From: Escherichia coli
GTDB lineage: Bacteria > Pseudomonadota > Gammaproteobacteria > Enterobacterales > Enterobacteriaceae
Strand: one strand, 5' to 3'
Assembly: GCF_003334335.1 (NCBI RefSeq)
Contig: NZ_QOWQ01000075.1
Length of the DNA: 6,510 bases
The notes beneath the pieces are model-generated. The model searched no databases. It had not been told where the DNA came from and was given only the letters and a program-made list of their open reading frames with translations. The position numbers and the translations under genes are program-made. Each line of letters opens with the position of its first letter. Position 1 is the stretch's first letter. This document shows positions 2,903-3,366 of the stretch, one piece after another.

Positions 2903-2974
2903 TATTATTTACTCATGTTCTAACTGATTTAATATTTATATCGAACACTGATAATTATTCTATTGGTTAGCTAT
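2903..2974 (+). promoter_or_regulatory. AT-rich intergenic leader of the moron; possible sigma70-type promoter (tentative)
   Basis: 72-bp AT-rich stretch directly after the I stop. Contains -10-like hexamers (TTATAT ~2936-2941, GATAAT 2950-2955) but no convincing -35 at canonical spacing. Based only on composition and weak motif resemblance. Confidence 0.2.
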
Positions 2975-3313
2975 ATGAACAAAACGATTTTATTCTGCAC
3001 GATTATTGCCTTAACAGGATGTAAATCTTTGGATTACGTAAAATCCGGAAAACCTGTAATGGAAGGTAATTCATTAAAAAATATTGATGAATTGTCAGGC
3101 TGCATATCCAGACAATGGGCTGGTAATGGAACACCTATAACATCCCTTCCTATTGAGAATGGGGTAAGCCTTTTAGTTCCACAGGCTATGGGGGGATATG
3201 ATGTTGTGCTTGATATCAAAAAAGCAGGAAATGGCAGTAGTTTTACTCTTTATGAACGTGTACCAGCATTAACGCCAAAAATTTTTGCTGATAGTGTTAA
3301 TGCATGTAAATAA
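2975..3313 (+). CDS. Small putative lipoprotein (moron / accessory gene of unknown function), predicted outer-membrane-targeted
   Basis: 112-codon ORF. N-terminus MNKTILFCTIIALTG|CKS has a basic n-region, hydrophobic core and lipobox L-T-G-C (signal peptidase II type); residue +2 is Lys, not Asp, suggesting outer-membrane sorting by the Lol rule. GC visibly much lower (estimated by eye high-30s %) than flanking tail genes (high-50s %). ATG 2975 preferred over the TTG at 2963 in the track. No strong Shine-Dalgarno upstream, so exact start is less certain. Stop TAA 3311-3313. Confidence 0.7.
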   Translation: MNKTILFCTIIALTGCKSLDYVKSGKPVMEGNSLKNIDELSGCISRQWAGNGTPITSLPIENGVSLLVPQAMGGYDVVLDIKKAGNGSSFTLYERVPALTPKIFADSVNACK

Positions 3314-3336
3314 TAGTTAATCCTGCCGTAACTCAT

Positions 3337-3366
3337 GAGCCGCCTTTTGGGCGGCTTTGTTGTTTA
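3337..3366 (+). terminator. Rho-independent terminator downstream of the lipoprotein gene
   Basis: GC-rich inverted repeat AGCCGCC (3338-3344) / GGCGGCT (3350-3356) with loop TTTTG, followed by a T-rich tract TTGTTGTTT (3357-3365). Lies 24 nt after the lipoprotein stop and just upstream of the J ribosome-binding site. Confidence 0.6.

Follow-up and report, generated by a model that had tools for sequence, protein, structure and literature searches.

A horizontally acquired PHROG 914 lipoprotein cassette between tail genes I and J of a lambda-like Escherichia coli prophage, and its possible roles

In phage lambda, tail genes I and J are separated by 60 bp (I ends at 15444 and J starts at 15505), whereas 477 bp lie between the same two genes in a 6,510-nt stretch of Escherichia coli DNA (contig NZ_QOWQ01000075.1; the whole stretch is called the window here), which raises the question of what the additional DNA encodes and what it might do for the phage or its host. 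The open reading frames (ORFs) of the window and the annotation of identical E. coli prophages identify it as the distal part of the tail module of a lambda-like prophage. A preliminary description of this locus had rightly noted a gap of ~480 bp in place of a few tens of bp, and had read it as a moron with a promoter, a lipoprotein gene and a terminator of its own. Comparison with empty sites shows that a cassette of ~432 bp (2903-3334, plus strand) was horizontally acquired by the prophage, and its single gene (2975-3313) is very probably an accessory, moron-type gene for an outer-membrane lipoprotein. It is a member of PHROG 914, a family that is already catalogued although uncharacterised, and does not represent a new kind of element. 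The role that we tentatively favour is that of an envelope-acting exclusion factor that works independently of the receptor-binding domain of J.

The limits of the cassette follow from the alignment of the filled site with the empty sites of PhiR49_1 and HK630 and with the lambda spacer. The cassette takes the place of ~13 bp (TGCAAAATGTTTT) of the lambda-type I-J spacer, its left boundary lying immediately 3' of the stop codon of gene I and its right boundary at ~3334. The left flank is the tail assembly gene I (2261-2902, plus strand, stop codon TAA at 2900-2902), which matches the end of lambda-type I and is named 'tail assembly protein' in identical prophages. The right flank is the tail tip and host-specificity gene J (3380-6510, plus strand), which starts with ATG, stays open for 1043 codons until the window ends and is gpJ in identical prophages. 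Windowed GC content falls to 0.28-0.40 across 2900-3400, compared to 0.52-0.62 in the flanks. The lipoprotein gene itself has a GC content of 0.363 and a third-position GC content (GC3) of 0.239, against a GC3 of 0.672 ± 0.063 in 112-codon windows of the tail genes, and its synonymous codons, when scored by their likelihood under the usage of the tail genes, give z = -10, which bears out the earlier claim of lower GC and different codon usage.

Searching 5426 complete E. coli genomes with the exact 464-bp stretch that contains the cassette recovered 349 places in 337 genomes (~6%), and the carriers include O104:H4 C227-11, IHE3034, S88 and APEC strains. A query of ~560 bases, in which the end of I was joined to the start of J, found 8784 places in 4346 genomes and, in addition, 110 phage records. 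All phage records among the matches listed span ~620 bp and are thus empty sites, as are nearly all sampled genome rows. Approximately 4% of the E. coli I-J junctions are therefore filled (349 of 8784 places) and ~96% are empty, so that the spacer is mostly empty in related prophages, the cassette is an accessory insertion and its gene is not a core lambdoid component, an alternative that the preliminary description had left for comparison. A nucleotide search of the phage collection returned no match to the cassette, and a search of plasmids returned a single one, probably a prophage-bearing record. These counts bear on the idea that the protein is a structural or assembly part of the tail tip, with a core function that lambda lacks. 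Such a part would be expected to keep a steady location among K, I and J, which the family does, but an exported, lipidated periplasmic protein cannot join tail assembly in the cytoplasm, the codon usage is foreign, the slot is variable, and most of the otherwise near-identical I-J junctions are empty, as are the phage isolates among the 110 records; a structural role is thus extremely improbable.

The 112-aa product of the gene begins with MNKTILFCTIIALTGC, with predicted cleavage before the Cys, and continues with KSLDY. Its signal peptide (residues 1-15, 2975-3019) is composed of a basic n-region, MNK, with K3, a hydrophobic h-region, TILFCTIIA, and then the lipobox LTGC (3011-3022), whose Cys16 (codon 3020-3022) is the lipidation site by rule. 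These features point to a lipoprotein processed by the Sec/Lsp pathway, with a predicted mature protein of 97 aa, 10.3 kDa and pI 7.9. Cys16 is followed by Lys at +2 and Ser at +3, and Asp at +2 is absent in every family member retrieved, because of which the protein should be sorted to the outer membrane by the Lol system. The outer-membrane type lipoprotein precursor with an LTGC lipobox that had been proposed thus stands on these rule-based grounds.

The ORF matches the PHROG 914 profile over its entire length (E 7.3e-33; residues 1-112 against profile positions 1-118 of 118), and homologues at 50-62% identity are found in Klebsiella, Enterobacter, Kluyvera and Jejubacter. In a library of 1.8 billion proteins, 59 cluster representatives were found at E ≤ 0.001, some of them long repeat proteins that are seemingly spurious. 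An alignment of 49 small members leaves C16, C43 and C111 as the only invariant residues, with the lipobox Cys kept in 49/49 and G63 nearly invariant. The full-length profile match, the homologues, the invariant cysteines and a confident AF2 model together indicate that ORF 2975-3313 is a genuine gene and not a chance reading frame. The mature sequence had been regarded as unrecognised and its function as undescribed, which does not hold for the sequence: besides its place in PHROG 914, the E. coli S88 copy is deposited in UniProt (B7ML65) under the name 'Lipoprotein', and a relative in phage phiKO2, gp19, is annotated as a putative moron. A literature search for 'phrog_914' and WP_001332187 found no papers, and the genome copies of the exact cassette gene are all annotated as 'hypothetical protein'. 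The locus tags AAF13_RS32070 and ECOK1_RS28755 of two copies (L015:6074-6412 and L016:6074-6412) are out of series with those of their neighbours, which suggests that the gene was first missed and then added on re-annotation. Some copies are frameshifted or truncated (P0002, P0018), and one match (H142) extends over half of the cassette and is unannotated.

The AF2 model calculated from the family alignment (pLDDT 90.8, pTM 0.81) has the element order beta-alpha-beta4-alpha, and predicts that the mature domain folds into a compact two-layer alpha/beta sandwich. In the model, C43 (codon 3101-3103) lies within the helix formed by residues 37-49 and C111 (codon 3305-3307) within the C-terminal helix 103-111, and the invariant Cys43-Cys111 pair probably joins the two helices as a disulfide staple, which would in turn imply an oxidising, periplasmic location. 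Since no catalytic-looking residues are conserved, the domain is most probably a module for binding rather than an enzyme. The predicted fold resembles those of Flpp3 (DUF3568), the N-domain of BamC and START/Bet v1-like lipid binders. Although Flpp3 and the BamC N-domain share this fold with the window protein, sequence identity to them is only 6-10% and the window protein has no Pfam membership. The modelled fold is a generic one, which is also seen in KA1, DUF302 and START-like domains, and no function can be transferred from it.

Relatives from three different positions in tail operons all match PHROG 914, and among 48 IMG/VR loci the gene occupies the K|I slot in 34, the I|J slot in 7 and the slot between the tail chaperone and the tape-measure gene (T|H) in 6. 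In total, 47 of the 48 viral loci are inside tail-gene clusters across deep divergence, and the linkage to tail-tip genes persists down to ~25-30% identity. The 'CKSLD' subfamily (at least 50% identity) alone occupies all three slots. Members are widespread in prophages of Klebsiella, Enterobacter, Salmonella and others; the K|I slot is used in Klebsiella, in the phages Fraca and LMessi, in phiKO2 and in several metagenomic prophages, and the Enterobacter copies sit between the chaperone and the tape-measure gene, which is the slot of the gp15 moron in HK97. The phiKO2 member gp19 (48.6% identity to the Fraca homologue) is annotated as 'putative moron gene product; similar to Xanthomonas gene XCC2962', and its gene occupies the K|I slot and is followed by a putative terminator, whereas the window copy lies in the I|J slot and uses the hairpin that resides there. 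The mobility among slots, taken together with a chromosomal member in Shimwellia blattae, indicates an accessory cassette captured from bacteria and not a core tail gene, and the Shimwellia blattae member could stand for the cellular origin of the branch that phages carry.

As a large hot spot for cargo, the K-I junction also accommodates genes of other families. In Fraca (L002:7648-7994) and LMessi (L003:7647-7994) an unrelated 115-aa lipoprotein gene with the lipobox IVGC lies directly upstream of the PHROG 914 gene; it belongs to PHROG 2320, has no Pfam match and forms a tandem lipoprotein pair with its neighbour. In some other prophages (L020-L022, ~400-5000) the K|I gap contains a P22 immI-like island with Arc/Mnt repressors, Bro-N and a KilA-N/ANT antirepressor, and in these gaps the PHROG 914 gene stands just before I.

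The signals for transcription of the window cassette differ from those that had been claimed for it. A terminator-like hairpin on the plus strand (3337-3367) is composed of a 9-bp GC-rich stem (3337-3357) followed by the T-rich tail TGTTGTTTAT, and has a folding energy of -21.6 kcal/mol (z = -4.3). In lambda, HK630 and PhiR49_1, the empty I-J spacer carries GAAACCGCC-nnn-GGGCGGTTTT, followed by TTTATGGAG and then by the start of J. In lambda and HK630 the hairpin reads GAAACCGCC-TGC-GGGCGGTTT (lambda 15470-15495; L013:1471-1496), and the window hairpin at the homologous place is GAGCCGCC-TTTT-GGGCGGCTTT, with one A-U to G-C compensatory change in the stem relative to theirs. Because empty spacers contain its homologue, the hairpin is a resident I-J backbone element of lambda-like phages and not part of the cargo, and the claim that the cassette has its own intrinsic terminator has to be withdrawn. 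The annotation of phiKO2, too, includes a putative terminator between I and J. Conservation of the stem with a compensatory change suggests selection for the structure itself within the late operon, be it as a terminator or for RNA stability or processing, and the resident hairpin could still terminate a transcript of the cassette. A scan upstream of the cassette found no terminator, so that it is not 'terminator-flanked' either.

On the 5' side, the AT-rich leader of 72 nt (2903-2974, plus strand, GC 0.22) contains no sigma-70-like plus-strand promoter at a scan threshold of 9/12 consensus matches and a 16-18 nt spacer. A laxer scan returned only 8-9/12 matches, the best of them with a 15-nt spacer, which is unremarkable at 22% GC; the weak hexamers are TTTACT-16-TAATAT, ending at 2935, and TTAATA-15-GATAAT, ending at 2955. 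Scans of three related cassettes found no coding-strand promoter upstream of them, thus the promoter that had been postulated is not detectable in silico in any of the four, while a hairpin with a U-run is present 3' of each. Morons have been characterized by extra DNA, deviating composition, a promoter and a terminator of their own and expression while the prophage is repressed (PMC3594210, after Juhala et al. 2000). The window cassette is extra DNA of deviating composition, its terminator belongs to the backbone, and its leader offers only the 8-9/12 promoter matches. What survives of the moron layout is therefore the foreign origin of the additional DNA and its occurrence in three slots, without a terminator of its own or a detectable promoter.

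Co-transcription with the late tail operon is likely, and in many HK97-like phages the K|I copies leave just 33-36 nt between K and the lipoprotein start, which suggests late, lytic-cycle expression. This observation, the lack of a detectable promoter in four cassettes and the invariable co-orientation of the gene with the tail operon would all be expected if the protein were expressed from the late operon only, as a helper of the lytic cycle that, once placed in the outer membrane of the infected cell, spares released progeny from being lost to debris or infected cells, or that conditions the envelope before lysis, and that has no role in the lysogen. Furthermore, exclusion factors are reported to keep phages from adsorbing unproductively to infected cells and to the fragments left after lysis (PMC12685063). 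The hairpin after each cassette nevertheless fits best with some transcripts that begin at a promoter without antitermination, an objection weakened by the lambda I-J hairpin, which has no cargo, and the 72-nt leader of the window copy at 22% GC is unlike the tight coupling of true tail genes. In addition, protection from debris is normally matched to the receptor, yet the lipoprotein is uncoupled from the C-terminus of J. An exclusively lytic function is for these reasons considered rather unlikely.

The position of the gene directly ahead of J had suggested an analogy to the lipoproteins that mask the receptor of their own phage. Several disulfide-containing outer-membrane exclusion lipoproteins are indeed encoded near tail-tip or receptor-binding genes, namely Llp of T5, Cor of phi80, N15 and HK022, Rtp45, and Lpp021 and Lpp010 of mEp phages (PMC12685063, PMC11893012). 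Llp targets FhuA and Rtp45 targets LptDE (PMC12685063), Lpp021 and Lpp010 are further excluders, and experiments have shown that Lpp010 of mEp010 excludes phages that depend on LamB, lambda among them (PMC11893012). A protein that masks the receptor of its own phage, in the way of Llp, Cor, Rtp45 and Lpp010 (PMC12685063, PMC11893012), would be expected to vary in step with the receptor-binding C-terminus of J, and the window protein does not. At the 19 loci with window-type lipoproteins, which are at least 98% identical, the C-terminal 200 residues of J form 4 clusters with identities down to 16%, and the 34 loci with Fraca-type lipoproteins (at least 84% identical) comprise 8 J clusters. Cor, which serves as a soft positive control, accompanies only 2 of the 8 J types of the Fraca-type loci. 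Of the 19 window-type loci, 13 share a J C-terminal type that is very widespread among E. coli prophages at large, with 9002 places in 3466 genomes, therefore the linkage to it is not exclusive. A match between the lipoprotein and the receptor-binding end of J is accordingly rejected, and the pairing of near-identical lipoproteins with 4-8 unrelated J ends speaks against masking of the phage's own receptor in the manner of Cor or Llp; of the earlier analogy, the general setting next to the tail-tip gene is retained, without homology or receptor coupling.

No Pfam family was found for the window protein or for 49 relatives, even at E ≤ 10, and NCBIfam yielded only a sub-threshold match of the VirB7 signal peptide. 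Two profiles searched against PDB chains gave nothing beyond signal-peptide or chance matches at E ≤ 10, in a PDB copy in which the presence of Llp and Rtp45 is unconfirmed. Cor (PHROG 1119) gave no match at E ≤ 1, and hhalign against the Cor of Fraca reaches a probability of 13% over the signal peptide only; Lpp010 likewise aligns by profile comparison in the signal peptide or lipobox only. No sequence or fold similarity to a characterised member of the T5 Llp, Rtp45 or Lpp010 type was thus found. The Lpp010 gene (L115:272-520, minus strand) follows J closely, on the strand opposite to it, and has no relation to PHROG 914; tail regions are therefore host to at least two separate lipoprotein solutions.

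Which activity could then explain a gene that travels with K, I, J and the tape measure but with no set J C-terminus? We propose that this pattern arises because the step that is blocked is independent of the receptor-binding domain. The persistent linkage to the tail tip, together with the independence from the receptor-binding end of J, is why exclusion after receptor binding is the reading that we favour, albeit tentatively. A precedent exists too, since the classical exclusion factors of siphophages are small lipoproteins of the outer membrane with a disulfide and are encoded in the tail region. The closest functional model is the gp15 moron of HK97, an experimentally shown exclusion protein that acts without blocking the receptor and whose promoter and prophage expression have been demonstrated (Juhala et al. 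2000; Cumby et al. 2012; reviewed in PMC3594210). Like the window gene, gp15 is a small, compositionally distinct, extra gene for an envelope protein in the tail operon, whereas its product is a YebO-like inner-membrane protein, is not a lipoprotein and is unrelated in sequence to the window protein; the exclusion logic would be analogous.

According to this proposal, the gene would be read as part of the late tail operon, and in the lysogen perhaps from a weak AT-rich promoter as well, and transcripts without antitermination would stop at the resident hairpin. The lipoprotein would be anchored on the periplasmic face of the outer membrane, where its binding partner might be a component of the envelope or the tail tip of an incoming phage. 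Superinfecting lambda- or HK97-like siphophages would then be prevented from delivering their genome after receptor binding, at a step such as tail-tip penetration or conduit formation. A more speculative and rather less probable extension is that PHROG 914 as a whole constitutes a new exclusion class, which blocks tail-tip penetration or DNA-conduit formation of lambda- and HK97-like siphophages regardless of the receptor used by J, as an outer-membrane counterpart of gp15 encoded by a cassette that hops among the three tail junctions.

A number of observations weigh against exclusion. PHROG 914 is experimentally uncharacterised in all its members, the window protein has no match among PADLOC models, and comparisons with Cor, Lpp010, PDB and PADLOC reveal no homology to any known exclusion lipoprotein. 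In contrast to all receptor-masking lipoproteins characterised so far, the window protein is not coupled to the receptor-binding end of J, and it also differs from them in having another fold and a larger mature domain. Llp and Cor are about as small as Rtp45 and Lpp010. The mature domain of 97 aa exceeds the size of Rtp45 (~6 kDa, PMC12685063) and of Lpp010 (82-aa precursor). Fraca carries Cor besides its PHROG 914 lipoprotein, hence the latter is not simply the receptor blocker of that phage. The failure to detect a promoter in 2903-2974 or upstream of the three related cassettes also belongs here. Furthermore, the Shimwellia blattae member (38% identity; CP001560, L017:5001-5339) is chromosomal and non-prophage, lying between a yidB-like gene and the ecotin gene and near copC/copD/yebY. 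Distant members are situated in non-tail contexts, although their contigs are mostly too short to be informative, and a scan of genome contigs with a distant subfamily gave a single contig of 3.6 kb. Together, the Shimwellia and the non-tail members point to a role in the cell envelope, which a phage could have captured for host fitness.

The possibility that the gene is such a captured chromosomal lipoprotein, acting as a lysogenic-conversion or host-fitness factor like Bor or Lom that has nothing to do with phage entry, for instance in serum or complement resistance, tolerance of envelope stress or periplasmic ligand binding, is a doubtful one when taken by itself, and still it is almost as likely as exclusion. 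Tail regions of lambdoid prophages are known for cargo of this kind, Lom lying right after J, and many relatives named 'Lipoprotein' occur in Pseudomonas, Bordetella, Pandoraea and Serratia beside the chromosomal homologue of Shimwellia blattae. A fitness factor is also predicted to be independent of the receptor-binding type of J, as was found, and the modelled fold is like that of Flpp3, a Francisella lipoprotein, of the BamC N-domain or of the lipid binders named above. Moreover, the cassette is present in ExPEC, APEC and O104:H4 strains, but restriction to a pathotype is not evident. Lambda Bor and Iss resemble the window protein in being prophage outer-membrane lipoproteins of ~100 aa and accessory cargo, whereas lambda bor is found near the lysis genes and the window gene in the tail operon. 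Homology to Bor/Iss is lacking, since hhalign gives Bor a probability of 23% on the signal peptide only and there is no match to Pfam Lambda_Bor. The location of 47 of 48 viral loci in tail clusters is a tighter linkage than is usual for such cargo, and the short K-to-gene spacing of many HK97-like phages leaves little room for a lysogen promoter.

If exclusion that is independent of the receptor-binding domain proved true, it would be relevant to the prediction of host range in phage therapy and to the entry of siphophages after adsorption, and if the protein is a host-fitness factor, it would be an addition to the Bor/Lom-type repertoire. The family is small, confidently modelled, easily cloned and located at known hot spots of prophage cargo, which makes it a reasonable experimental candidate. 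In addition, the locus illustrates that a 'promoter-gene-terminator' reading of such cassettes can be misleading, given that the terminator here is part of the backbone.

The remainder of the window is consistent with its assignment to a tail module. The ORF list places the 3' end of the tape-measure gene H at 25-591, gene M at 588-917, gene L at 917-1615 and gene K at 1620-2363, all upstream of I, and the NCBI annotation pipeline PGAP names the same tail genes in other E. coli prophages with identical DNA. In such prophages, Lom directly follows J. An antisense ORF of 585 aa inside J (4310-6067, minus strand) is most likely no gene and would have arisen mechanically from the GC-rich codons that J prefers. 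The GC content within J dips to 0.47-0.50 at 5600-6100 (approximately J residues 740-910), and residues ~740-910 are only 41% identical between cassette-bearing prophages, when strain 214-4 is compared to O104:H4 and IHE3034; this block looks like a mosaic segment distinct from the C-terminal receptor-binding end.

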